A stretch of DNA of 64,000 bases from Candidatus Uhrbacteria bacterium. Its GTDB lineage: Bacteria > Patescibacteriota > Patescibacteriia > UBA9934. Numbering within the stretch: position 1 is the stretch's first letter; each line of letters starts with the position of its first letter. The notes beneath the pieces were generated by a model that saw only the letters and a list, made by a program, of their open reading frames with translations, ran no database searches and was not told where the DNA came from. The position numbers and the translations under genes are program-made. Where the stretch lies: positions 151,296-215,295 of the forward strand of contig CAWGHH010000001.1 in NCBI GenBank assembly GCA_963822405.1, given 5' to 3'. Shown here piece by piece: positions 1 to 47,213 of the stretch.

Positions 1-25
1 GAGAAAGAAACCATTTGCTTCGCGT

Positions 26-769
26 TTAGTAAGCGAAGCCGTAACCCGCATGCTCGCAACCGAGCTCGCGGGTGGCCACGTGCCAGAGCGTGGTCATGGC
101 GCTACAATGGCCATCGCTGAAGCGCGACGACTCCTCGTAGACGAAGATTTTCTTCAGGGCAGCGGAGTAGCTGCCGAAGAACTTCGCCTCGCTAGGTTCA
201 CCCGTGGCGATAATCGCCAGGATGTCTTCGGCGGCTTGGTCGGGGTTAAACCCGGTGACCAGACGCTCGCGGCCGCCGTCCGTGGCCACCTTCCAGGCAA
301 GCGCGGTTCGGAGATCTGGAGCCGCCTCGTGGTGGAAACCGCCGTCGGAATCGACGAACCCGATGGCCCGTCCCTCGGTGGCGATTTCGATCGAGAACCC
401 GACCTTCTCCGGGTCGAGACCGATCTCCCGCGCGATGCCGCGATAGCGCAGCGCGCACAGCTGCGCGAGCGGGGTCGGGGACGTGGTCCCCAGGATTGCG
501 GTACCGTTGCGATCACGCAACGTGCCGACCACCATCGGGTCGGCCAGCCCGAACTGGGTCAGATTCGCCCGGATCGGGTGCGCGGTCAGGGCATCCGCCT
601 CCCAGTAGAGGCGCGACGACTCTTCCGCGAGGGCCTTGTACTCGGGGTCGTTTTGGGCCTCGGCCAGCCCAATTTTTTTCTCCTTGGAGATCCGGTCGCG
701 AGCCGTGTAGGCCCGGTCGGAGGCGGTCTTGTACGCCGCGTGCGCGACGAGATATGTATCAATGGACAT
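26..769 (-). CDS. hypothetical protein (247 aa) in GC-rich island
   Basis: Long ORF; ATG at 769 preceded by AAAGGAGAG RBS; no recognisable motif; GC visibly higher than the rest of the window. Confidence 0.5.
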   Translation of the reverse strand: MSIDTYLVAHAAYKTASDRAYTARDRISKEKKIGLAEAQNDPEYKALAEESSRLYWEADALTAHPIRANLTQFGLADPMVVGTLRDRNGTAILGTTSPTPLAQLCALRYRGIAREIGLDPEKVGFSIEIATEGRAIGFVDSDGGFHHEAAPDLRTALAWKVATDGGRERLVTGFNPDQAAEDILAIIATGEPSEAKFFGSYSAALKKIFVYEESSRFSDGHCSAMTTLWHVATRELGCEHAGYGFAY

Positions 770-823
770 TTTCTCTCCTTTCCCGCAATTGTAACCGGCG
801 GGTTCGGGTGATTTTACAGCAGC

Positions 824-878
824 ATCCTCAACGAACGTCTTAAAAAGAATGTAAGTTTTTAAGCAGTTGGTTGAGGAT
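824..878. promoter_or_regulatory. 9-bp inverted repeat (ATCCTCAAC / GTTGAGGAT) around a 37-nt spacer, upstream of the 26..769 gene
   Basis: Perfect IR seen directly at 824-832 and 870-878; sits in the promoter region of a minus-strand gene. Confidence 0.3.
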
Positions 879-929
879 CCCGGCCAGACAATGGTGCATT
901 GTCAGCCGAGATCTTGGGTGCGGTTCCTG

Positions 930-1040
930 CTACCGTTTGGTCAGCAGGAACCAGACAATCTGGGCGTAGGCGAGTGCGATCAAGCACCCGCTTCCGCCGA
1001 AACAGCAGAGGACAAAGATGTCCCCGACCTGGTGGGCCAT
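930..1040 (-). CDS. 36-aa hydrophobic peptide (MAHQVGDIFVLCCFGGSGCLIALAYAQIVWFLLTKR)
   Basis: ATG at 1040 with GGAGG 6 nt upstream; single TM-like hydrophobic stretch; the longer 930..1220 ORF is probably an over-extension. Confidence 0.3.
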   Translation of the reverse strand: MAHQVGDIFVLCCFGGSGCLIALAYAQIVWFLLTKR

Positions 1041-1129
1041 AGCGGCCTCCGTGGTTGTTGTCGAGTGAACGCTCGACGCGTGTTTTGGACTCCGTCGGTT
1101 AATTCCAGACGGCATCCAGCCCGATTTTT

Positions 1130-1495
1130 TTAGCTCTCCAGGGCGGAGAGGAAGAGCGGGAGGAATTCCTCCCACCCTTTTGGGGCGTTCGCCCGCGGTT
1201 CCCGCAGGCACTTGGCCCATGTCTCCGCCGGCGCGGGCCAGTACGGCGCGCGCCCATCACCCAGCACCTGCCGCAACCGGCGGGCGACTTCCTCGTGGAA
1301 GCGCGCCTCTCCGGCCATGTAGACGCCGTGATCCCAGCCGAATTCCGGGCTCGCGGACCAGGAAAAGGCCTCGCCTACGCGAGCGGTTTGCGCCGCCTGC
1401 TGGTGCCGGGTGGCGGCCTCGGCGACCGTCATGAGGCCGTGGTTAACCACGGCCCTCGCCACTGCGGCGGCGATTTCTTTTTCAGTGCGGGCCAT
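1130..1495 (-). CDS. hypothetical protein (121 aa)
   Basis: ATG at 1495 preceded by GGAGG (ttGGAGGccatcATG); the ORF extends to a TTG at 1507. Confidence 0.5.
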   Translation of the reverse strand: MARTEKEIAAAVARAVVNHGLMTVAEAATRHQQAAQTARVGEAFSWSASPEFGWDHGVYMAGEARFHEEVARRLRQVLGDGRAPYWPAPAETWAKCLREPRANAPKGWEEFLPLFLSALES

Positions 1496-1541
1496 GATGG
1501 CCTCCAATCAAGGAACTCGATCGCGCATGAGCTGCGCAGTG

Positions 1542-1594
1542 ATCGGTCCTCATCTGATCACTCAAGGGAGAGAGTCCTTAAGTGATCGGATGAG
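1542..1594. promoter_or_regulatory. Conserved long hairpin in 5' leader, copy A (conserved stem arms, variable apex)
   Basis: Left arm ATCGGTCCTCATCTGATCACTC pairs with AGTGATCGGATGAG (14 bp, one G.U); apex forms an AAGG/CCTT mini-stem; copy B at 2652-2703. Confidence 0.45.
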
Positions 1595-1673
1595 AATCCC
1601 TGAAGTGGTCGAGTGTCGACGAGACTTCAGGGATTTAGAGTGACGTAGTTGCGGAGCGTTAGCCCCACACCCG

Positions 1674-1964
1674 TCACCCACGTTGGTACCAACCCCCGTT
1701 GTTGGTTCGGTGTCCCTCCTTATGGATGGACATGATTTCCTTCCGGAGCTCTTTTCGAGCCACTCCTGGGGTCATGCCTGCTGGCGGAGCGAGTACGAAA
1801 AATTCGTACACCGCTCCGCGGTGGCAGTCCCCGCAGTATCCGTCATCCCAACAGCAGCACATTGTGCCGCCGTGGTTCAGACGGCGCGTTTCCGCGCCTG
1901 TCTGGACGAACCCCTGCGCGAGCAACCGCGCGAGGATAAGGTGGGATCGGGTTTTAATGGACAT
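1674..1964 (-). CDS. Cys-rich small protein (96 aa; CCCWDDGYCGDCH cluster)
   Basis: ATG at 1964 with AGGAGG RBS; dense Cys/His cluster suggests metal binding. Confidence 0.5.
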   Translation of the reverse strand: MSIKTRSHLILARLLAQGFVQTGAETRRLNHGGTMCCCWDDGYCGDCHRGAVYEFFVLAPPAGMTPGVARKELRKEIMSIHKEGHRTNNGGWYQRG

Positions 1965-2150
1965 TTTTCCTCCTTAAGAGGTTGATCGGTATGTCATACC
2001 GAAGCGTATTGATACGATCTCAACGCTCTCAAAATCCACAACCTCCATCATGAATTTTGAGAACGCGCCCTGGTACCGCTGTGTGCGTGGGTACCAGAGC
2101 GAGCGAAATTTTTTGGCAGACTATTCCTGGTCTGCCGGCAGGTACCGCCT

Positions 2151-2378
2151 TTACCAGGCGGTGTTGTTGAAGAAGGACTCCATGTCCTCCTTCGACGCTG
2201 CCCCCATGGGGCAGTCGTGGCTGTCGAGCGCTTCTTTGCGCTCGGCTAAGAGGGACATTCCGTCCCTCTGGAGATTCACCACGGCATACGTGCCGTGGAA
2301 CCCGCGCCACCCACCCGTGAGGGCGAGGAGGACGGGGACGAGCTGGGCGCTCATTCCCCCGTTCGCCACCAGGATCAT
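2151..2378 (-). CDS. hypothetical small protein (75 aa)
   Basis: ATG at 2378, 10 nt downstream of the preceding gene stop (operon-like); contains a CPMG motif. Confidence 0.4.
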   Translation of the reverse strand: MILVANGGMSAQLVPVLLALTGGWRGFHGTYAVVNLQRDGMSLLAERKEALDSHDCPMGAASKEDMESFFNNTAW

Positions 2379-2388
2379 ATGATCCTGG

Positions 2389-2577
2389 TCAGTGGTCTCG
2401 GCCCGGAGGCGCCTTGACCGCCTCGGAGACGGTGGCCGTGGCCACCCCCTCCGGCGGGGCGATGCGGTCGTCGTCCATGACGACGACCGTCGGGGTTGTT
2501 TTTGGGAATTCACGGAGGGCATCCGCGAGGATGCCCTCCACGTTCCGACCATTGAACACCAACAGCTTGGTCGACAT
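2389..2577 (-). CDS. hypothetical small protein (62 aa)
   Basis: ATG at 2577 with GGAGG 5 nt upstream; the listed ORF start at 2643 is a GTG inside the leader hairpin. Confidence 0.4.
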   Translation of the reverse strand: MSTKLLVFNGRNVEGILADALREFPKTTPTVVVMDDDRIAPPEGVATATVSEAVKAPPGRDH

Positions 2578-2651
2578 GGCGACCTCCAATTGAGTGACTC
2601 GATTTTTCCTCATGACTTCCGGCAAACATTTGCCAGCGGTCACGGAATAAC

Positions 2652-2703
2652 ATCGGTCCTCATCTGATCACTCGAACGGAGGATGTTCGAGTAGTCGGAT
2701 GAG
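2652..2703. promoter_or_regulatory. Conserved long hairpin in 5' leader, copy B
   Basis: Same 22-nt left arm as copy A; right arm GAGTAGTCGGATGAGG; apex forms a CGAAC/GTTCG mini-stem. Confidence 0.45.
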
Positions 2704-2806
2704 GAGAGGGGACCAGGCGAAGTGTTCGCTATGTCCCCTCACACGTCACTTTTCTTTTTAGGCTTGCCGGTAGGTTGTGCCAAAGGAAAAGAAAGTGAGA
2801 AAGAAC

Positions 2807-3052
2807 CTAATTGGGACTACCAGTCCCCGCACTCATTGGCGGGGACTTCGAGCCAGCGAGCGTATAGCCCGCCGAGGTTTCCTTTCGTCCCTTCTCGCCG
2901 GTATCCGGCGACGGCCACGTACCAGCGGCCGTCCTGCTGGACGACCGCCCCTGCCTCGGGGCTCTGAGCCAACCGGGCTCAGGGCCATGCCCCGAGGGTC
3001 CGTTTTCGGATCCTTCCTGGGCGGCAAGTTTCATGATTTCGGTTTTTTCCAT
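2807..3052 (-). CDS. Gly/Ser/Pro-rich small ORF (81 aa) behind the shared 67-nt leader; frame uncertain
   Basis: ATG at 3052 immediately after the AGGAGGAAAAA RBS that ends the conserved leader; low-complexity product. Confidence 0.3.
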   Translation of the reverse strand: MEKTEIMKLAAQEGSENGPSGHGPEPGWLRAPRQGRSSSRTAAGTWPSPDTGEKGRKETSAGYTLAGSKSPPMSAGTGSPN

Positions 3053-3055
3053 TTT

Positions 3056-3122
3056 TTCCTCCTTGCACTTTTAGATGCAGGTAATCGGCCCCCGTGTGAT
3101 GGGGTATGGTGTGCCGACCGTC
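3056..3122. promoter_or_regulatory. 67-nt conserved 5' leader element, copy 1 (about 5 mismatches against copy 2)
   Basis: ttcctccttgcacttttagatgcaggtaatcggcccccgtgtgatggggtatggtgtgccgaccgtc; carries the RBS and a CCTTGCA...TGCAGG stem adjacent to it. Confidence 0.5.
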
Positions 3123-3336
3123 TCTGATGAGACGGGTTTAACAAATTCGGAGCAAAGTTGCCTCCGACATAAACTCTCCATCATGAAGAATTTGTGTCGA
3201 AGGACGAGGAAGAGCGGTGCATGTGCTCAATTCCTCGCCTACGGGTGCTAATCATGTCCTTGTTGGACTTCACCGCGCAGATGGGGCACGTGTCAGTTTC
3301 TATAGGAGCTGTAGCCCCAGAAACTGACAAAGAAGG

Positions 3337-3561
3337 CTATTCCTGCGTATTGCCGCAGGAAGGGCAGACGCCGACCTTGTCGGCGTTGCCGAAGGCGCCC
3401 AGATGGGCGCCGCAACTCCAGCACGAAACGTCGTGCTGGATGGTCAAAGGGGGGGCGACTATCACCCCCCCACACTCTGGGCACAAGAGAGCCCCTGAGC
3501 CGTGCCTTATCGGCACGACTCCTGCATTGTGCGTGCAGACCGGGCACTGGATGTGATCCAT
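3337..3561 (-). CDS. double zinc-ribbon small protein (74 aa; four CxxC pairs)
   Basis: ATG at 3561 with AGGAGG RBS inside leader copy 2; CPVC, CPEC, CWSC and CPSC motifs. Confidence 0.5.
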   Translation of the reverse strand: MDHIQCPVCTHNAGVVPIRHGSGALLCPECGGVIVAPPLTIQHDVSCWSCGAHLGAFGNADKVGVCPSCGNTQE

Positions 3562-3563
3562 TG

Positions 3564-3630
3564 TTCCTCCTTGCACTTTTAGGTGCAGGTAATCGGCTCC
3601 CGTATGATGGGGTATGGTTTGCCGACCGTC
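3564..3630. promoter_or_regulatory. 67-nt conserved 5' leader element, copy 2
   Basis: Near-identical to 3056-3122; sits immediately upstream of the zinc-ribbon ORF. Confidence 0.5.
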
Positions 3631-4107
3631 CCGGAAGGGGCGGATTTAGGAAATGGTCGAGCGCATCGGTCACACCGACAGCGTAGTGTCCGCGTCGATG
3701 TCGTTGATTAGGACCTCCGTGTCCTGATCCACTACCAGGCCGAGCCTGATGGCGAGTGCAACCTGTTGACAGGTCGCCAACGTCACGAGCCGGGTGCAGC
3801 CGGCGTGGTGATCGAACGAGAATCGACGCCCGGAGGCATCGACCTGGGGCCCTGCACGGCCCCATCGAGCGCGATCGAGTTCACACAGAGGTTCTCGAAG
3901 GAGACGACCTGGCCGAACACGAAGTTGATACGCATGGTGTCCTCACTCCCGGTTTCCGCCGGGTCGGGATTGTCACGGCTTATAACCAGCTTCGAACTTC
4001 CAGGTGTTGACGATCTCTCGTCAGGGGCTGCGGCAGGTCGAGAAACTCGACTAAACCGACTAACGCCTGAACACCTTTCCGTCCAAACTGGCTACTCGCC
4101 AATCAGC

Positions 4108-11723: not shown

Positions 11724-12311
11724 CTAGGTGTCAGTATATATCACTGGGTGGCCGTCGTTCCACCATGTATTTGGGTTGTTGACGATATATTGCCGAATCC
11801 GATCGAGATCACCGTTTGCGCGGGTTATGTGTTCGTAATAATTCGTTTGCCATAATCGCCGATCGTAGTATTTGTGATTGATTTTATGCCATCGAATATA
11901 TTCATTGGTCGAAACCGATTTGAACCATTGCATCACCCGCGGTAAATCCGTCGGCGCCGGCAAATTGTTCGTCGTAGGGGCCGACTTCGATGTCGGCCCT
12001 TTCTCATCAAACATTTCCACAATCCCGTGAAAATGATCCGGCATCACCACGTATTCGTGTAAACGTACATTTGAAAATTTGTTTGGTATGGTTGCCCACC
12101 ATTCGGTGATCATTGAACCGAATGCGGTTAAACGGATGTTGACCAGAGGGCCGACATTGAAGTCGGCCCCTACGCCGCGATTGACGATTACGTCGCCGAA
12201 AATACCGTCGCGGTTGTTTGCGTTTAATGTCACGTAATACAATCCGGGTGTCGAATAATCAAATCCTGGCAATCGTGGATTCTTACGTCCAATTTCTTTC
12301 CATGAAAACAT
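11724..12311 (-). CDS. REP-associated tyrosine transposase (RAYT / TnpA_REP, IS200-like HuH Y1), carrying two in-frame REP insertions
   Basis: HuH motif MPDHFHGIV; Tyr motif RRLWQTNYYEHITRANGDLDRIRQYIVNNP, YafM-like; REP copies 4 and 5 lie inside the ORF without breaking the frame. Confidence 0.8.
   Translation of the reverse strand: MFSWKEIGRKNPRLPGFDYSTPGLYYVTLNANNRDGIFGDVIVNRGVGADFNVGPLVNIRLTAFGSMITEWWATIPNKFSNVRLHEYVVMPDHFHGIVEMFDEKGPTSKSAPTTNNLPAPTDLPRVMQWFKSVSTNEYIRWHKINHKYYDRRLWQTNYYEHITRANGDLDRIRQYIVNNPNTWWNDGHPVIYTDT
11978..11999. repeat. REP copy 4 (inverted orientation, loop TTCGAT) inside the RAYT CDS
   Basis: gggccgacttcgatgtcggccc; translates in-frame as KGPTSKSAPTT. Confidence 0.7.
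12148..12169. repeat. REP copy 5 inside the RAYT CDS
   Basis: gggccgacattgaagtcggccc; translates in-frame as RGVGADFNVGPLV. Confidence 0.7.
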
Positions 12312-14333: not shown

Positions 14334-15359
14334 CTAGCGAGAGGTAAATATCCGAATCTCATCCATTAACTTCTTGTTCGGCCACTTAGTGAGGAGTCCG
14401 GCTTTTGCCCCAACGTGTTGAATAACGCTTTCGGAGTTGAGCGTGCCGATCTGCAAAGCCTCGTCTACAGTTAATCCTTTCGCTAGAGCTGAGACTACGC
14501 CGGAACCAAATGCGTCACCAGCGCCAGTGGTTGAAATTGGGTGAATGTTTCTGGTTCTGGCCGAGTATTTGATTTTTCCCATCGAGGCATACGCCCCGCG
14601 AGGTCCGTCGGTCACCACGTCGAGTGTAGCGGTCGACTTCGATGTCGACCCTTGCAAGGCCACAGCCAGTTCCTTCCCATCTTTGGTTGACAGTCCCGTC
14701 AGTGTCTGTGCTTCTTCGAGGTTCACAAACAACACGTCGACATCTTTCAGGAGTGGTCGAAGTTCAGATGCCTTTGCAAGCTCGCCTCCACCTGGGTTTA
14801 CGGAAATTTTTGCGCCGGTTTTTTTGGCGTGCGCGATAATTTTTGAAAGTAAGGCAATGTTCCCGGATAGGGAAGACACGTAATACCATTTCGCCGAAAG
14901 GGTTTTGAGTGGCACGTCGGCGAGTGAAAACTCGGCGGAGACACCGCGGTGAACAAGCGCGGTTCGTTCGCCAGTCGGTGCTGTTAGTAGCGTGCTGTAG
15001 GCGGTTTGCCCACCTTTAATGCGCTTGACCATGGTCGCGTCGATCTTGTAGCGAGCGAGATCGCGCAGAACGTCGTCTCCCGGTTCGTCATCACCAACTC
15101 GCGATACGATGCCGGTGACGAAACCGAGATTCGCAAACGTCGCGGCGGCATTCGTTGCTCCACCGCCCGTCGACAGAACCACTTGTTCGACGTCAATCTT
15201 TGTTCCGAGGGCGACACACTCGCCAACGCCAGTAGAAAATTTGTCGGATTTGAGGAGTTGGAATTCTTTCGAAAGTAAAAAGACGTCCCGAACAGCGGAA
15301 CCGATGGTGATGATGTCGTACATATGCCCCCATTCTACACCGCGGCATTTCTTTTCCAA
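14334..15359 (-). CDS. PfkB-family carbohydrate kinase (ribokinase-like) with an in-frame REP insertion
   Basis: TTGAGDAFGSGVVSALAKG signature; REP copy 7 encodes GSTSKSTAT in a loop. Confidence 0.8.
   Translation of the reverse strand: MEKKCRGVEWGHMYDIITIGSAVRDVFLLSKEFQLLKSDKFSTGVGECVALGTKIDVEQVVLSTGGGATNAAATFANLGFVTGIVSRVGDDEPGDDVLRDLARYKIDATMVKRIKGGQTAYSTLLTAPTGERTALVHRGVSAEFSLADVPLKTLSAKWYYVSSLSGNIALLSKIIAHAKKTGAKISVNPGGGELAKASELRPLLKDVDVLFVNLEEAQTLTGLSTKDGKELAVALQGSTSKSTATLDVVTDGPRGAYASMGKIKYSARTRNIHPISTTGAGDAFGSGVVSALAKGLTVDEALQIGTLNSESVIQHVGAKAGLLTKWPNKKLMDEIRIFTSR
14630..14651. repeat. REP copy 7 (GGTCGAC variant, inverted) inside the PfkB CDS
   Basis: cggtcgacttcgatgtcgaccc. Confidence 0.65.
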
Positions 15360-18467: not shown

Positions 18468-18950
18468 ATGATGGCACATATGAAAAAATTACTTATTGGT
18501 TTGTGCGCGGTGACGCTTCTTGGGGCTGGGTGCGCTAGCTCTGATTTAAGCGACGCTACGCATAATAGTGACGGCTCACCATTTGTTCCGGTAGCCCAAG
18601 AACCGGCTAAGCTTGGTCCTCAACCTGGATATCCAGGGGATAATCCAGATGTGACCGTGCAGGGCGAGTGGGCAGGTTTTGTGCTGGCTGTAGCTGACAA
18701 CAAGTCTTGTGACGAAGCTAAACTGTACTTAACCGCGGCTGTCCAACCGGCATTTACGGCTGAGGCATGTAAACAGATGAACGATTACATCATGACCGTG
18801 CCAAGTGTTGATTGGTCGAAAACTGTCACCGCGGCCGATAATAAGAAAGTTACGCTCTACAGCTATAAGGGCGAGTTATTTGCTGAGTACTTACTCGGTG
18901 TAGACGGAGCTTGGTATTTGAACACTCCGGTTTGGGTAGCGAAGTTGTAG
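18468..18950 (+). CDS. putative lipoprotein (160 aa)
   Basis: Signal peptide with lipobox LLGAGCASS. Confidence 0.5.
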   Translation: MMAHMKKLLIGLCAVTLLGAGCASSDLSDATHNSDGSPFVPVAQEPAKLGPQPGYPGDNPDVTVQGEWAGFVLAVADNKSCDEAKLYLTAAVQPAFTAEACKQMNDYIMTVPSVDWSKTVTAADNKKVTLYSYKGELFAEYLLGVDGAWYLNTPVWVAKL

Positions 18951-19031
18951 AAAATAAAAACAGACTAGTCGTCGAAATTTGAGTCGGATTACCTCCTAAA
19001 AATTTCTCTCAACTAGTCTGTTTTTATTTTC
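18950..19031. repeat. Nested-hairpin element copy 1: perfect 20-bp inverted repeat around a 42-nt core, spanning exactly stop to stop of convergent genes
   Basis: Arms gaaaataaaaacagactagt / actagtctgtttttattttc; core contains GAAATTT-gagtcggattacctcctaa-AAATTTC; a 37-nt stretch of this core recurs identically at the second copy (61525-61611). Confidence 0.7.
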
Positions 19032-20038
19032 TACTTTTTGGCGACTGCGTGCTTTTTTAGTTTCATCACTTGACGAACAGCCTTCACGATCCAAGGTGCG
19101 GTTAGCTTGTAGTGTTCTAGTAGCTCGCGCGGTTCGCCGGATTGGCCAAAGGTGTCTTCCATGCCAACGCGTTCGACTGGCACTGGATACGTCTTCGCGA
19201 GGAGCTCGCATACAGCACCGCCAAGTCCACCGGCGGCTTGGGCTTCTTCGACGGTAACAATTGCGCCACACTCTTGAGCTGCGGCAATGACGGTGGCCTC
19301 GTCCATTGGCTTGATACTGACCATGTTGATAACGCGCGCTTCGATTCCTTTCGTTTCGAGCTCTTTAGCCGCGAGCATCGCCTCGTACAATAGGGGGCCA
19401 CAGGCGAGTATGGCAACGTCTGTGCCGGTTTTGTAAACTTCAGCTTTGCCAATGGCGAACGGCGTTTTTTCGGTTGTGAAAACCGGCGTTTTCTCGCGTG
19501 CGAACCGAATGTAGACTGGGCCTTCATGTTTGGCGGCGGCCACAATGGCTTTGCGTGTTTCAATTGCGTCGCACGGTACGAGCACGGTCATGTTAGGCAG
19601 CACGCGCATGATAGCAATGTCTTCTACCATTTGGTGCGTCGCCCCGTCTGGACCAACGGATACACCGGCGTGCGCTCCGGCAATTTTCATGTTTGTATTT
19701 TGAAGACAGGCGGTTGTTCTAATCTGTTCCCAGTTTCTACCGGGGGAGAAGCAGGCATAGCTGACAATAAACGGAACTTTTCCCTGTAGAGCCATGCCAG
19801 CGGCGATAGCGGCGAGTGATTGTTCTGATACGCCCATCTGGACGAACCTTTCTGGGAAAGCGAGTTTGAAAGACTCTACTCTAGTTGACTCAGTTAAGTC
19901 TGCGCACAGAACCATGACATTTGGATCAGCCTGCCCGGCCAGCACTAAGCCCTGCCCAAACCCATCACGGGTTGGAGCCTGGGCAATATCAGCATCAAAG
20001 AGTTTTTTTGTTAGGGCTGCCGAGCGGGGAATAGACAT
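19031..20038 (-). CDS. tkt: transketolase, C-terminal (pyrimidine-binding) subunit
   Basis: Recognisable transketolase C-terminal-half sequence across the whole ORF. Confidence 0.85.
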   Translation of the reverse strand: MSIPRSAALTKKLFDADIAQAPTRDGFGQGLVLAGQADPNVMVLCADLTESTRVESFKLAFPERFVQMGVSEQSLAAIAAGMALQGKVPFIVSYACFSPGRNWEQIRTTACLQNTNMKIAGAHAGVSVGPDGATHQMVEDIAIMRVLPNMTVLVPCDAIETRKAIVAAAKHEGPVYIRFAREKTPVFTTEKTPFAIGKAEVYKTGTDVAILACGPLLYEAMLAAKELETKGIEARVINMVSIKPMDEATVIAAAQECGAIVTVEEAQAAGGLGGAVCELLAKTYPVPVERVGMEDTFGQSGEPRELLEHYKLTAPWIVKAVRQVMKLKKHAVAKK

Positions 20039-32447: not shown

Positions 32448-32490
32448 AGTATAGCAAAAAAACGCCCTTTTGTCAATGTTTTGGGGCTAA
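32448..32490 (-). promoter_or_regulatory. Near-consensus promoter of cassette 2 (TTGACA-N17-TGCTATACT plus conserved upstream TTAGCCCCAAAACA)
   Basis: Minus strand reads TTAGCCCCAAAACATTGACAAAAGGGCGTTTTTTTGCTATACT. Confidence 0.6.
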
Positions 32491-32573
32491 GATTAGTAAA
32501 AAAGTTTCCGGCATAGCCGGACCCGGCTCTGCCGGGAAAAAAGGCTGAAAAAGCTGTAAAGTTGAAAAAGTAA

Positions 32574-33026
32574 TTAGCGCATCTCTTTCTGCGCCCAGTG
32601 TTTTGGCAGTTTGGTGGTTTTCAGGAGCTGTGCGGTTCGTTCGATATCAGCGAGGGGTACATTGTGGATATTGCGAGAGGCGCCGACGTTATTATCACAG
32701 GCGAAGTTCAGGATTTCTACGGTATACCCAAAGTTTCGACCAAGCATGATATACGGCGCAATTTCCCAAGCTTGGGCGTTCATGTTGTCGATGATGATTG
32801 TCGAGTCGCCGTTATGAAGTGCGTCATGGCATTTTTTGAAGCAGGCATCATGGGCGAGCTGGATTTTGGACTTGTCGTAGACGTATGTTCCGTCAGTTTG
32901 TAAGAAAAAATCATCTGCGGAGCAGATAACAGCGTCAGTTTGGGATTTCGCGTAAGTAGATTTGCCTGAGCCAGGAATACCGCGGAGAATTTGGAGAGAT
33001 TTCATATGGGGTAGGGGTCGACCCAT
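32574..33026 (-). CDS. P-loop kinase-like small protein (AAA_33 / zeta-toxin-like NTPase fold)
   Basis: Walker A GIPGSGKST; about 150 aa; start is 33026 or 33005. Confidence 0.55.
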   Translation of the reverse strand: MGRPLPHMKSLQILRGIPGSGKSTYAKSQTDAVICSADDFFLQTDGTYVYDKSKIQLAHDACFKKCHDALHNGDSTIIIDNMNAQAWEIAPYIMLGRNFGYTVEILNFACDNNVGASRNIHNVPLADIERTAQLLKTTKLPKHWAQKEMR

Positions 33027-33066
33027 GCGTCGACCCTTTCCGGAATTTTATGTAAGATGTGTTTGT

Positions 33067-33909
33067 ATGATAATCGATCTCGCAAAAGTCGTCCTTCTCT
33101 GCCCAAAGAACGACGAAGAATCCGTGCTCATTTTGAAAATCGCCATAGCCGCGGGTATCCCAACCGTTATTTCGCCTCAGGCGCACGGTTCGCGACTTGA
33201 ACTCGAGGAAAAACTCGAAGAACGGTTGAAAACTGCGAATCCGAATGCCTCGACTATCGTTATTGTCGAAACTCCCGGTTCTGCGCGTGAAGCCGAACTC
33301 GAAAAAGCGGGGTACGAAGTGATCATCATCGACCATCACCGTTACGAGGGACTGAATCGCATGAAGCAGGAGAGTTCACTCGACCAGTTTTTGGCTTTGT
33401 TCGAACTCGACGATAAGAAATTAATCGAACTCGGCTTTGATCCGTTCCTCGTAAAGGGCGTTGCGATGCTTGATAGAGGTTGGGTGTGGGAATTATCGCG
33501 CGAGGGGATTGAGAAAGAAGACCGAAAGCGGATCGTGGAATATTATTTGTCTTTTGCCGATGAACTAGGCGGCTCTCGAAAGGATGGGATGGCTGAAGCG
33601 CGAAAAGTGTGGGAAATTAGAGAAGAACGTGACGGAGTAATTATTGTTCGAACACCGACTGAAACTAGAATTCGCGAAGCATTATCGATAATCCTTGCGG
33701 AGAACTATGATGAGCCGCCAGTTACGTTGATCGTCGAGGGCGCTCATCGAATTACCGTTCAAGACACTGACAAGGCAACAAAATTACACGAAACTTTTGG
33801 TGGTTATGTCTTTGGCAAAGATCGTTGCTGGGGCTATCCGAGTACTCCTGAGAAGAAGGGGCCGAGTGAAGATGAGATAATGGAGGTGCTATGTTCTCAA
33901 AACCTCTAA
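33067..33909 (+). CDS. hypothetical protein with DHH-like motif (IIIDHH)
   Basis: Start set at the ATG at 33067 because upstream ORF sequence overlaps the convergent gene; no RBS seen, so the start is uncertain. Confidence 0.4.
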   Translation: MIIDLAKVVLLCPKNDEESVLILKIAIAAGIPTVISPQAHGSRLELEEKLEERLKTANPNASTIVIVETPGSAREAELEKAGYEVIIIDHHRYEGLNRMKQESSLDQFLALFELDDKKLIELGFDPFLVKGVAMLDRGWVWELSREGIEKEDRKRIVEYYLSFADELGGSRKDGMAEARKVWEIREERDGVIIVRTPTETRIREALSIILAENYDEPPVTLIVEGAHRITVQDTDKATKLHETFGGYVFGKDRCWGYPSTPEKKGPSEDEIMEVLCSQNL

Positions 33910-34967
33910 CAACTCCTCCCGACCGCAAATTTCTCCTCGACTGGATCGAGCAGGATGTTTTGTTATCGAAAGCGGGAGTGCGGGCGAGAAATGTGGTTGC
34001 GGAACTTGTCGGAAAGATTCCTGAGGTGAAGAAGCTGGTCGAAACCCCCCAAACTTCGCCCCATCACGCCGAGGGTCCAACCGTTGAGGCGCATTTGGTA
34101 CGAATTCTTTCGGTTCTTTTTGCTGTTACAGGGTCAATTACTCCCTGGTCCCCGAGCGTAGGCGAGGGGCCTAGAGGCTCGCCCGTAGGGGCTACGCCCG
34201 AGGGTGGGTTATTGGATATTGAGGAATTTGTTCGAGAGAAAATTCTTTTTGCCGAATGGAAATCGCTTTTCTCAACTATTACTCAGAATGAGAAATTTCT
34301 CTCTGCCTACGCTTTCGCTCATGACCTCGGTAAGGCTGAGTGTGTGAAGATCGACGACGCGGGTCGCGTGCACTATCTTGGTCATGACCGCGCGGGTGCG
34401 TCGTCCTCGTATGCGTACGCACGCGAAGCAATTCTCAAGTACTTTGGCCTGCCGTCGTCGAGCGCGAAACTATTGACTGAGTTGATTCGGTTGCACATGG
34501 ATATAATTACGACATTCCAGAGTTCCGCGAACATAGCTGAGTTTAGGGCATTTGTCGCACTAGCCGGTCGCGCTGGACTGAACAAAGAATTATTCCTCGA
34601 TCTTGCGCCGGCTTGTCTGTTCTTGGACGCGGTAGCTGGAAGTTTGGAGGAGGTGGACGGTCGACGGTTCCACGACATGACGCCTTTGATAAACTGGCAT
34701 CGAGCGGAACGTGAGGCTATGCCAGAGAGGCACGAGGCCAGAGAAGCGGGGGAGAAAAAAGCGTCAAAGATGGCTGTTAAAAAAGCGTATGCTGACGCTA
34801 ACTTATCGCCAGAAGAAGTGTTCGAGTTGCTCGGCACGCCAATCGGTCCAGTTCGGGGTGAGGTCATGAAGAAGATTGATGAGCTTGTGAAAAATCATGA
34901 AGCAAAGATTGATTTCGGCGAGCAGACGGAGGAGATTCGAAAGAGAGCGAAGAATGTAAAACTATGA
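33891..34967 (+). CDS. HD-domain phosphohydrolase-like protein carrying a GC-rich palindromic in-frame insertion
   Basis: H...HD...H...D pattern (SPHHAEG, AHDLGK, YLGHDRAG); insertion at 34142-34209. Confidence 0.55.
   Translation: MFSKPLTTPPDRKFLLDWIEQDVLLSKAGVRARNVVAELVGKIPEVKKLVETPQTSPHHAEGPTVEAHLVRILSVLFAVTGSITPWSPSVGEGPRGSPVGATPEGGLLDIEEFVREKILFAEWKSLFSTITQNEKFLSAYAFAHDLGKAECVKIDDAGRVHYLGHDRAGASSSYAYAREAILKYFGLPSSSAKLLTELIRLHMDIITTFQSSANIAEFRAFVALAGRAGLNKELFLDLAPACLFLDAVAGSLEEVDGRRFHDMTPLINWHRAEREAMPERHEAREAGEKKASKMAVKKAYADANLSPEEVFELLGTPIGPVRGEVMKKIDELVKNHEAKIDFGEQTEEIRKRAKNVKL
34142..34209. repeat. GC-rich palindromic segment (GCGTAGGCGAGGGG ... CCCGTAGGGGCTACGC) inserted in-frame in the HD-domain CDS
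   Basis: Local GC far above the flanking gene; dyad symmetry; encodes SPSVGEGPRGSPVGATPEGG. Confidence 0.5.
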
Positions 34968-36980: not shown

Positions 36981-36986
36981 AGAATT

Positions 36987-37015
36987 AGTATAGCAAAAAA
37001 TCTGACTTCTGTCAA
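36987..37015 (-). promoter_or_regulatory. Near-consensus promoter for the orphan transcript
   Basis: Minus strand reads TTGACAGAAGTCAGATTTTTTGCTATACT. Confidence 0.55.
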
Positions 37016-47178: not shown

Positions 47179-47184
47179 GAGGCA

Positions 47185-47213
47185 AGTATAGCAAAAATAG
47201 GCGAATATGTAAA
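47185..47213 (-). promoter_or_regulatory. rnpB promoter, TTTACA-N17-TGCTATACT
   Basis: Minus strand reads TTTACATATTCGCCTATTTTTGCTATACT; predicted start coincides with the P1 5' end. Confidence 0.55.

Follow-up and report, generated by a model that had tools for sequence, protein, structure and literature searches.

Rickettsia palindromic elements (RPEs), reportedly described by Ogata et al. in 2000, lie in frame in conserved genes of a small-genome bacterium, where the peptide they encode is at the protein surface, and their families occur both in and between genes. Insertion sequences of the IS200/IS605 group (IS608, ISDra2) move as single-stranded DNA by 'peel and paste': a Y1/HUH transposase recognises hairpins and uses a short, specific target, leaving no duplication of fixed length. 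Repetitive extragenic palindromic (REP) sequences have as their hallmark a palindrome tagged at one end by a conserved tetranucleotide, GTAG or CGTC; intragenic REPs, often in frame, are known in several species, and RPEs are the classic intragenic palindromic repeats (PMC3733652). The RPE work is cited there and in PMC1779305. Here we analyse a GC-rich segment at positions 34144-34217 of a 64,000-nucleotide stretch of a Candidatus Uhrbacteria genome (the window), within a conserved gene of the Patescibacteria (Candidate Phyla Radiation, CPR). The segment is a composite of two tiny, hairpin-forming, non-autonomous REP-like repeats, one (unit B) nested in the other (unit A). In full-text literature searches we found no paper linking REP elements, or the REP-associated tyrosine transposases (RAYTs), with Patescibacteria.

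The original prediction placed a single palindromic element at 34142-34209. The place was right, but the boundaries are better drawn at 34144-34217, and there are two elements rather than one:

33891-34967, forward strand: host gene, encoding a 358-aa conserved Patescibacteria protein, HD-like but unconfirmed; it overlaps the start of ruvA, and the insert corresponds to residues 85-109
34131-34143, forward strand: left flank, ACAGGGTCAATTA
34144-34177, forward strand: unit A, hairpin part, CCTGG-T-CCCC-GA-GC-GTAG-GC-GA-GGGG-C-CTAG-AGG, encoding (W)SPSVGEGPRG
34178-34204, forward strand: unit B, a 27-nt palindromic module CTCGCCCGTAGGGGCTACGCCCGAGGG nested in A, encoding SPVGATPEG
34205-34217, forward strand: unit A, 3' tail, TGGGTTATTGGAT, encoding GLLD; the counterpart of the conserved family tail GGTGGnnnATTGGAT

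The 74-nt element is 69% GC compared with 50% for the remaining host gene, bearing out the earlier claim of a far higher GC content. GC reaches 0.73 in the 60-nt interval 34140-34199 and 0.76 in the best 50-nt interval, about 3 standard deviations above the mean of the 64 kb (0.49, standard deviation 0.085). The sequence GCGTAGGCGAGGGGCCTAGAGGCTCGCCCGTAGGGGCTACGC (34156-34197) has a single occurrence in the window. The element is translated in frame as part of the open reading frame (ORF) 33891-34967 (...WSPSVGEGPRGSPVGATPEGGLLD... / ...ITPWSPSVGEGPRGSPVGATPEGGLLDIEE...), as had been proposed, and of the three forward frames here, only the one in use contains no stop codon. The palindromic character had been ascribed to the whole 68 nt; it holds within units A and B, but the dyad symmetry of the whole is at chance level. 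The 81-nt region 34135-34215 folds no better than its dinucleotide shuffles (z = 0.08 as DNA, -1.66 as RNA), which led us to reject a single 68-nt palindrome, and the outer GCGTAG/CTACGC arms come from two different units. The hairpin signal is confined to the units, with p ~0.01 for A and ~0.0125 for B when each is locally aligned with its own reverse complement and compared with shuffles. By the same test A has no significant similarity to B, nor to the REP family of the window (p > 0.2 for the REP comparison), and B shares one 9-mer (CGTAGGGGC) with that REP family at a marginal p ~0.05. Since except for this marginal 9-mer the alignments are like those of shuffles, we rejected common descent of A and B and a derivation of either unit from the REP family. 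The prediction that the segment is unrelated to REP is supported at the level of sequence, although the segment is an element of the same general kind. At gathering thresholds Rfam recognises only tRNAs in the window, and a permissive Rfam scan of 33900-34500 returned only chance-level matches.

The two-part structure emerges from copies in other genomes. A k-mer comparison of the stretch against the loci that we had fetched gave two matches away from the host gene. One lies within the isoleucyl-tRNA synthetase (IleRS) gene of a related genome (L005, 1090-1136): its sequence, TCCCAGTCCCCGAGCGAAGGCGAGGGGCCTAGAGGTGGGCTATTGGAT, is the window stretch minus the middle 27 nt, with the frame kept (SPSEGEGPRGGLLD). 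The other match is the only further copy of B known, GAGGCTCGCCCGTAGGGCGGTCTACGCCCGAGGGGTCGG, located where a spacer separates the HD-like gene from ruvA in the closest orthologous locus (L003, 3427-3465); it represents the middle part alone, with 31 of 34 positions matching. The window stretch is therefore A with B nested in it. The IleRS gene of the window offers the empty counterpart of the first site:

29433-29453, forward strand: empty site in the IleRS gene of the window (...DLGQKDSV...), IWQDLGQKDSVHL

The filled site in L005, IWQDLMDGRSQSPSEGEGPRGGLLDGDSVHL, has gained a 54-nt unit A (...DLMDGRSQSPSEGEGPRGGLLDGDSV...) bordered by an 8-bp direct repeat TGGATGGT (p = 0.007).

For B, every other full copy of A runs uninterrupted through the junction (...CCTAGAGG/TGGG), and at least eight copies of A are without B. 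The B copy of L003 sits within a different palindromic element of about 75 nt, whose B-free form is found at L028 1-90; the two sites read CCGGTGAGG/GTCGGATCC in L028 versus CCGGTGAGG/CTCGCCCGTAGGGCGGTCTACGCCCGAGGG/GTCGGATCC in L003. In both filled sites GAGG stands on either side of B, and the junction in the window could shift by up to 4 nt. B measures 27 nt within the gene and 30 nt in the spacer, a pattern that would follow if genes retained in-frame versions only. On this comparison of filled and empty sites, B appears to be an independent module inserted into A. Other members of this repertoire are also nested. Copies of A in L001 (3244-3318) and L030 (4117-4193) carry insertions of ~40 nt, containing GACCCT...AGGGTC, and ~41 nt, respectively, in or near the loop, so that nesting seems to be a habit of these elements and not a one-off. 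The ~75-nt element (CTGAGC-CTTGCGAAG-AGTCCGAC...GTCGGAT-CCTTCGC-...GCTCAG; L028 1-90 and 650-735, L003 3404-3500) is likewise built from hairpins of the unit A type. Through its presence the HD-like gene and ruvA of L003, two genes that overlap in the other genomes, have come to be separated by a 100-nt spacer. Around the PfkB genes of L028, at least seven related hairpins are packed into 3 kb.

Unit A has the general form CCCC-GA-GC-GNAG-GC-GA-GGGG, a hairpin, followed by CTAGAGG-TGGG-TATTGGAT. It is ~47-54 nt long, of which the hairpin part takes up ~26-30 nt, and it occurs in three subtypes:

A1: CCCCGAGCG[A/T]AGGCGAGGGG
A2: CCCCGACGnnAGGAGGGG
A3: CCCTGAGCGTAGGCGAAGGG

All subtypes have a common fold of a stem, a tandem G·A, a short stem and a tetraloop. 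In alignments of 11 copies, 81-88% of the cells in paired positions can pair, compared with at most 56% when the 3' partners are slid, and two stem positions show a compensatory change from C-G to T-A. With few and related sequences, this evidence for pairing and covariation is supportive, not conclusive. The non-palindromic tail CTAGAGG-TGG...ATTGGAT is conserved as strongly as the stem: after CCTAGAGG it continues as TGGGCTATTGGAT in the IleRS copy of L005, as TGGGTTATTAGAC in L016 and as TGGnGGATTGGAT in the HD-like genes of L005, L004 and L001, and it is present also at L025 4791. Copies start with (C)CAGTCCCC or CCGGTCCCC, and GTAG is confined to the loop of some of them, where others have GAAG, GCAG, GTTA, GCCA or GTGA. 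Direct repeats at the flanks measure 8 bp in one copy and 6 bp in three, and are absent or attributable to chance in six. Target-site duplication as a general feature of the family was accordingly rejected, as it is convincing for the IleRS copy only.

The original prediction proposed a search for further copies. Neither sequence searches nor a covariance model (R1) built from the 11 copies found a second A in the 64-kb window, but near-identical DNA of 30-47 nt occurs in unrelated genes and spacers of related Patescibacteria. The exact 22-mer core matched 13 stretches among 185,579 species-representative genomes, a set that does not include the genome of the window, and those matches with element-like flanks are all from Patescibacteria. 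They are the IleRS copy, a second copy in the same assembly, just 3' of dnaK (L016), and a copy in frame in a valyl-tRNA synthetase (ValRS)-like gene (L012, SPSVGEGPRGG). A core-only match, CCCCGAGCGCAGGCGAGGGG, lies on the reverse strand in topA of a Candidatus Taylorbacteria genome (L014, 5279-5300), in frame (...GTGPSPALGA...); its frame differs from that of the other reverse copies and the family tail is absent. The matches in Acidobacteria, Sphingomonas, Frigoribacterium, Planctomycetaceae, Chloroflexota and others were set aside as chance, as their flanks are unrelated and their number is about that estimated from base composition. A gapped pattern searched in metagenomes matched five contigs, three of them new and relevant. 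L022 has two inverted copies 30 nt apart in the grpE-dnaK spacer, L025 has a copy just 5' of metG, and L023 duplicates the ValRS-like locus L012. R1 scored the unit A of the window at 51.1 bits (E = 4.3e-10), and this unit could be aligned with 10 copies from other loci. The model added two further copies in L025 and an A-like copy in L026, and it also recovered a broader set of hairpins, YCCYGA...GARGGR, dense in L028. The 8.7-kb locus L025 holds at most three copies. Counting the sites 3' of dnaK, between grpE and dnaK, 5' of metG and at L025 4791, about half of the known A sites are extragenic, in what is a small sample; the in-frame sites are in the HD-like gene, the IleRS gene and the ValRS-like gene. 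The family therefore shows no specialisation in coding loops, which refines the earlier proposal; its suggestion that more than one family of small palindromes occupies such loops is supported: REP and A share the loop described below.

All 50 homologues of the host protein come from Patescibacteria or from unnamed metagenome sources. Their alignment has invariant or nearly invariant residues H68, H144-D145, H161, H165 and D204, a H...HD...H...D pattern in keeping with the earlier designation of the protein as HD-domain. Against this, Pfam gave no match, NCBIfam matched the HD part of a CCA enzyme weakly (E = 0.005), and the best Foldseek matches (a CCA-type tRNA enzyme, a phosphodiesterase, YhaM and SAMHD1) all have E ≥ 0.3; a profile search of the sequences of the PDB with the host protein returned no relevant relatives. 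The HD label is plausible but weakly supported. Flanked by a conserved helix (HLVRILSVLF) and a conserved IEEFAREK motif, the loop that holds the insert differs in length in nearly every orthologue. An AlphaFold2 model, computed from an 18-sequence alignment, has a mean predicted local distance difference test (pLDDT) score of 87.4, and residues 83-105, between helices 65-80 and 111-115, are the only internal segment below 50. In the model the insert thus coincides with the only internal segment predicted to be disordered, a surface loop.

The segment is absent from the 335-aa orthologues P0004 and P0007, as expected of an insertion, and orthologues of 335-349 aa either do without it or have other content at this position. 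We compared the loop codon by codon in the DNA of seven orthologues (L001-L007):

L007: no insert recognised
L003: full copy of the REP family of the window, GGGTCGAC-GCAAAG-GTCGACCCCTAC
L002: collapsed REP, GGGTCGACCCCTAC
L001, L004 and L005: CCTCTAGGCCCCTC...CGTCGGGGACC, the reverse complement of GGTCCCCGAGCGTAGGCGAGGGGCCTAGAGG of the window, read as TSRPLLASGTG
L006: degenerate forward copy

Conservation of the segment as ordinary coding sequence in orthologues would have told against the original prediction; with the loop empty or differently filled in them, the segment is not conserved coding sequence, and this comparison, like the search for copies, supports the prediction. The reversed A encodes TSRPLLASGTG at the same loop where the forward copy encodes SPSVGEGPRGG; the same DNA in both orientations giving unrelated peptides, it is the DNA and not the peptide that is shared. 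The concatenated peptides (SPS[VE]GEGPRGG, TSRPLL[AT]SGTG and that of B), used as a query, had no match at E ≤ 10, these motifs being too short for significance in 5.8 billion sequences. The left flank (34131-34143) may be a remnant of the REP present here in L003 (ACATTGGGTCGAC...), judging solely by positional correspondence in the codon-level comparison.

A neighbour-joining tree computed for the host protein without its loop has a branching order that the loop contents do not mirror. One clade (100% bootstrap) unites the window, with A forward plus B, and L003, with a REP (82%), and has L004, with A reversed, as sister; a second clade (69% support) contains loops with A reversed, A forward, a collapsed REP and no insert. 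As the content is out of step with the tree, the loop has been occupied and its content replaced several times. Behind this turnover may be new insertions, the inversion of a resident element or the conversion of one element by another. In all, the earlier reading was essentially right, the correction being that there are two nested low-copy elements and that the family is extragenic too. We consider it very probable that the segment is correctly described as two dispersed mini-elements combined within a disordered loop.

Of the described systems, REPs and their doublets (REPINs) invite the broadest comparison. A and B are likewise small, GC-rich, imperfect palindromes, dispersed, mostly near gene ends and sometimes in frame within genes. 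The ~26-30-nt hairpin of A falls within the ~20-40 nt of a REP stem-loop, there is one clear inverted doublet (L022), and RAYT genes are present in the same genomes, one lineage of which ends in an A-like hairpin. On the other hand, A has no GTAG or CGTC end tag, whereas the REP family of the window itself has GTAG; it has the conserved non-palindromic 3' tail CTAGAGGTGG...ATTGGAT and a tandem G·A internal loop in its stem. Judged from loci that are parts of genomes, A apparently numbers one to a few copies per genome compared with tens to hundreds for REPs, and neither unit is significantly similar to the REP family of the window. The likeness to RPEs lies in the in-frame position of A in conserved genes, in the placement of the insert in a disordered surface loop of the model, and in the occurrence of sites both in and between genes. 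The two differ in length (~100-150 nt for RPEs compared with 47-54 nt for A and 27-30 nt for B), and the host of the RPEs is an alphaproteobacterium, not a member of the Patescibacteria. Units A and B carry no transposase, unlike IS200/IS605 elements; a lead in that direction is a RAYT locus of related genomes (the second lineage described below), which has different hairpins at its 5' and 3' ends and TTAC beside the 5' one. Like MITEs, the miniature transposable elements with inverted repeats, A and B are short and non-autonomous, and the IleRS copy has its 8-bp direct repeat. They are nevertheless far below the typical 70-300 bp of MITEs and lack terminal inverted repeats that would match those of a known insertion sequence; A begins and ends differently (CCAGTCCCC... 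versus ...ATTGGAT), and the flanking repeats are inconsistent and of no fixed length.

A candidate enzyme is encoded in the window, and the REP copy nearest to the segment lies in a spacer about which relatives are also informative:

11724-12311, reverse strand: RAYT, REP-associated Y1/HUH tyrosine transposase (Pfam Y1_Tnp, E = 3e-9; NCBIfam REP_Tyr_transpos, E = 1.1e-14)
33011-33038, no strand assigned: nearest REP copy of the window, GTAGGGGTCGAC-N6-GTCGACCCTT, in the spacer between an AAA_33 gene and a DHH-like gene

The RAYT gene is flanked and interrupted by GTAG-tagged REP copies, and from its family assignment its product is a candidate trans-acting enzyme for the small palindromic elements found here. 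Relatives have a syntenic RAYT (P0052, L028) and a second RAYT lineage, 43% identical (P0055, L026; P0056, L030). At the second RAYT, L026 and L030 have a REP with TTAC on the 5' side and an A-like hairpin, CCACCTCTAGATCCCTCCTCACGTCGGGATGA, over the stop codon; this 3' hairpin is all that connects unit A with an enzyme. L026 and L012 are a single contig, the one with the ValRS-like copy of A; L030, L022 and L025 share their metagenome sample of origin.

The REP family of the window has features of its own. The RAYT gene holds two in-frame REPs, at 11970-12005 and 12147-12177 (...RGVGADFNVGPL... and ...EKGPTSKSAPT...), forming an inverted pair ~150 nt apart, and the same two positions hold REPs in the 43%-identical paralogue (L026 10115-10159 and 10312-10356; L030 ~3615-3650 and ~3840-3875). 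This shared pair suggests an old or functional arrangement, possibly autoregulation. A further REP lies in frame (14626-14657, ...GSTSKSTATL...) in a PfkB-like sugar kinase ORF (14334-15359, reverse strand), so this family, too, is found in coding sequence. The REP of the AAA_33/DHH-like spacer (GGGTCGAC-N6-GTCGACCC) recurs in L001 (2112-2134) and L005 (2113-2135), where the proteins are only ~75% identical.

From these observations we propose that unit A entered a surface loop of the conserved HD-like protein and that B was inserted later, at a GAGG site within A. A and B would have been copied as single-stranded DNA hairpins by a Y1/HUH RAYT acting in trans, and in related lineages this loop would have been filled time and again, whether by REP or by A in one orientation or the other. 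The gene would tolerate both units on three grounds: they fall in a disordered loop, they add a whole number of codons, and they are read in the sole stop-free forward frame; the encoded peptide would then be a by-product and not a selected feature. The data show the two-part make-up, the copies at other loci, the filled and empty sites, the hairpin and the disordered loop; which unit was inserted first, by what enzyme, and the single-stranded route are what we infer. With a RAYT in the window and an A-like hairpin ending the second RAYT, mobilisation of single-stranded hairpins by a RAYT is the likeliest mechanism, one that we put forward tentatively and at somewhat less than even chances. 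Taken as a blend, the composite structure together with this mechanism is, on balance, probably the best explanation. Several facts count against it. The RAYT of the window is flanked by the other REP family and not by A or B, and the A-like hairpins at RAYT ends belong to one orthologous locus and hence amount to a single observation. A has no end tag of the classical REP kind, and B is known from two copies. There is one copy of A in 64 kb, the exact core is found in three Patescibacteria genomes of the 185,579 (one of them the core-only L014), and only four relevant metagenome contigs were matched. Direct repeats are convincing for the IleRS copy only and absent from several others. Spread by recombination or gene conversion between copies, which we judge unlikely yet worth weighing, would also account for part of the picture.

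That last explanation takes the repeats as real but has them spread by homologous recombination or gene conversion between palindromic copies, including between genomes, with no transposase. In its favour, different elements have taken one another's place at exactly one loop, out of step with the gene tree, B is seen only inside other palindromic elements, and target duplications are inconsistent. The clean contrast of empty and filled sites in IleRS with its 8-bp repeat goes beyond what recombination alone would give, however, and RAYT genes are present, with an A-like hairpin adjoining one in relatives; we give this possibility about one chance in a handful. A still lower standing falls to the idea that the hairpins are maintained because they serve as RNA, in mRNA stabilisation, as processing sites or in translational pausing, with the copies in genes selected for this role. 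The compensatory changes preserve the stem, conservation is strong in the tandem G·A internal loop and in the CTAGAGGTGG tail, and the extragenic copies lie where REPs usually act (3' of dnaK, between grpE and dnaK, 5' of metG); it also counts in its favour that many REPs have been argued to act as RNA (Di Nocera et al. 2013, PMC3733652). A transposase-recognised DNA hairpin explains the covariation equally well, though, and copies occur in both orientations relative to transcription, the reversed ones turning G·A into C·T and having the tail read as its complement. Orthologues manage without the element and Rfam has no match to it, all of which makes an RNA role rather improbable.

We regard the two remaining explanations as very improbable. 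If the loop were simply hypervariable, the GC-rich sequence could have arisen in place by slippage, duplication and drift, with no mobile or repeated element; loop length does differ in almost all orthologues, the halves SPSVGEGPRG and SPVGATPEG look loosely like a tandem duplication, and there is no second copy within the 64 kb. The 30-47 nt of near-identical DNA in unrelated genes and spacers of other genomes largely refute such an origin, and the empty site in the IleRS gene of the window, the reverse-orientation copies in the same loop and the lack of significant similarity between A and B speak against it as well. Nor does a selected protein feature, a Pro/Gly/Ser-rich linker or interaction motif gained by the HD-like protein, fare better. 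The peptide is in frame, stop-free and flexible, and SPS[VE]GEGPRGG recurs in two aminoacyl-tRNA synthetases; yet reversed copies in the same loop encode an unrelated peptide, close orthologues are without the segment, the region is predicted to be disordered (pLDDT < 50), extragenic copies share the DNA and the peptide search gave no protein family.

The small, streamlined genomes of Patescibacteria thus bear several families of REP-like mini-elements, tolerated in essential genes (IleRS, ValRS-like), a tolerance within genes so far known chiefly from Rickettsia and a small number of other lineages. Inserts of this kind account for unusual loops in CPR proteins that are GC-rich and of low confidence, and they can mislead orthology assignment, alignment and structure prediction; their presence or absence is a usable strain marker. 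If the link to the enzyme is true, B, at 27-30 nt, and a loop reused by three element types could make a compact system for studying target choice by Y1 enzymes. More speculatively, and with a low probability in our own estimate, the RAYT-type Y1 transposases of this clade may actively shuttle nested mini-hairpins of 27-54 nt, which would settle by preference in a few tolerant surface loops of essential genes, the two in-frame REPs at conserved positions inside the RAYT genes forming a self-regulating or self-targeting circuit; mini-hairpins that replace one another in loops would then be a natural generator of protein-loop diversity.

Further observations concern other parts of the window. 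In the IleRS gene, at 29478-29506, a short tandem repeat of CACCC type (CCCCACACCCTACACCCCACACCCT) encodes PTPHTLHPTPS where L005 has the unrelated AGNVNAKA of similar length, another odd in-frame replacement in that gene. Within positions 1-4000 many 50-nt intervals have 70-82% GC, compared with 49% elsewhere, and a 94-nt repeat (3053-3146 and 3561-3654, 86% identical) lies within this GC-rich region; the first ~4 kb may represent foreign DNA or a join made in assembly. The arms of a perfect 37-nt inverted repeat, TCGAAATTTGAGTCGGATTACCTCCTAAAAATTTCTC, lie 42.5 kb apart at 18972-19008 and 61550-61586, each adjoining a local 34-nt palindrome (18936-19045 and 61525-61611). An AT-rich motif, ...TATAGCAAAAAAACGCCnTTTTGTCAA..., occurs at four sites outside ORFs (31107-31175, 32436-32504, 36984-37015 and 47182-47213) and may be a shared promoter or terminator signal.

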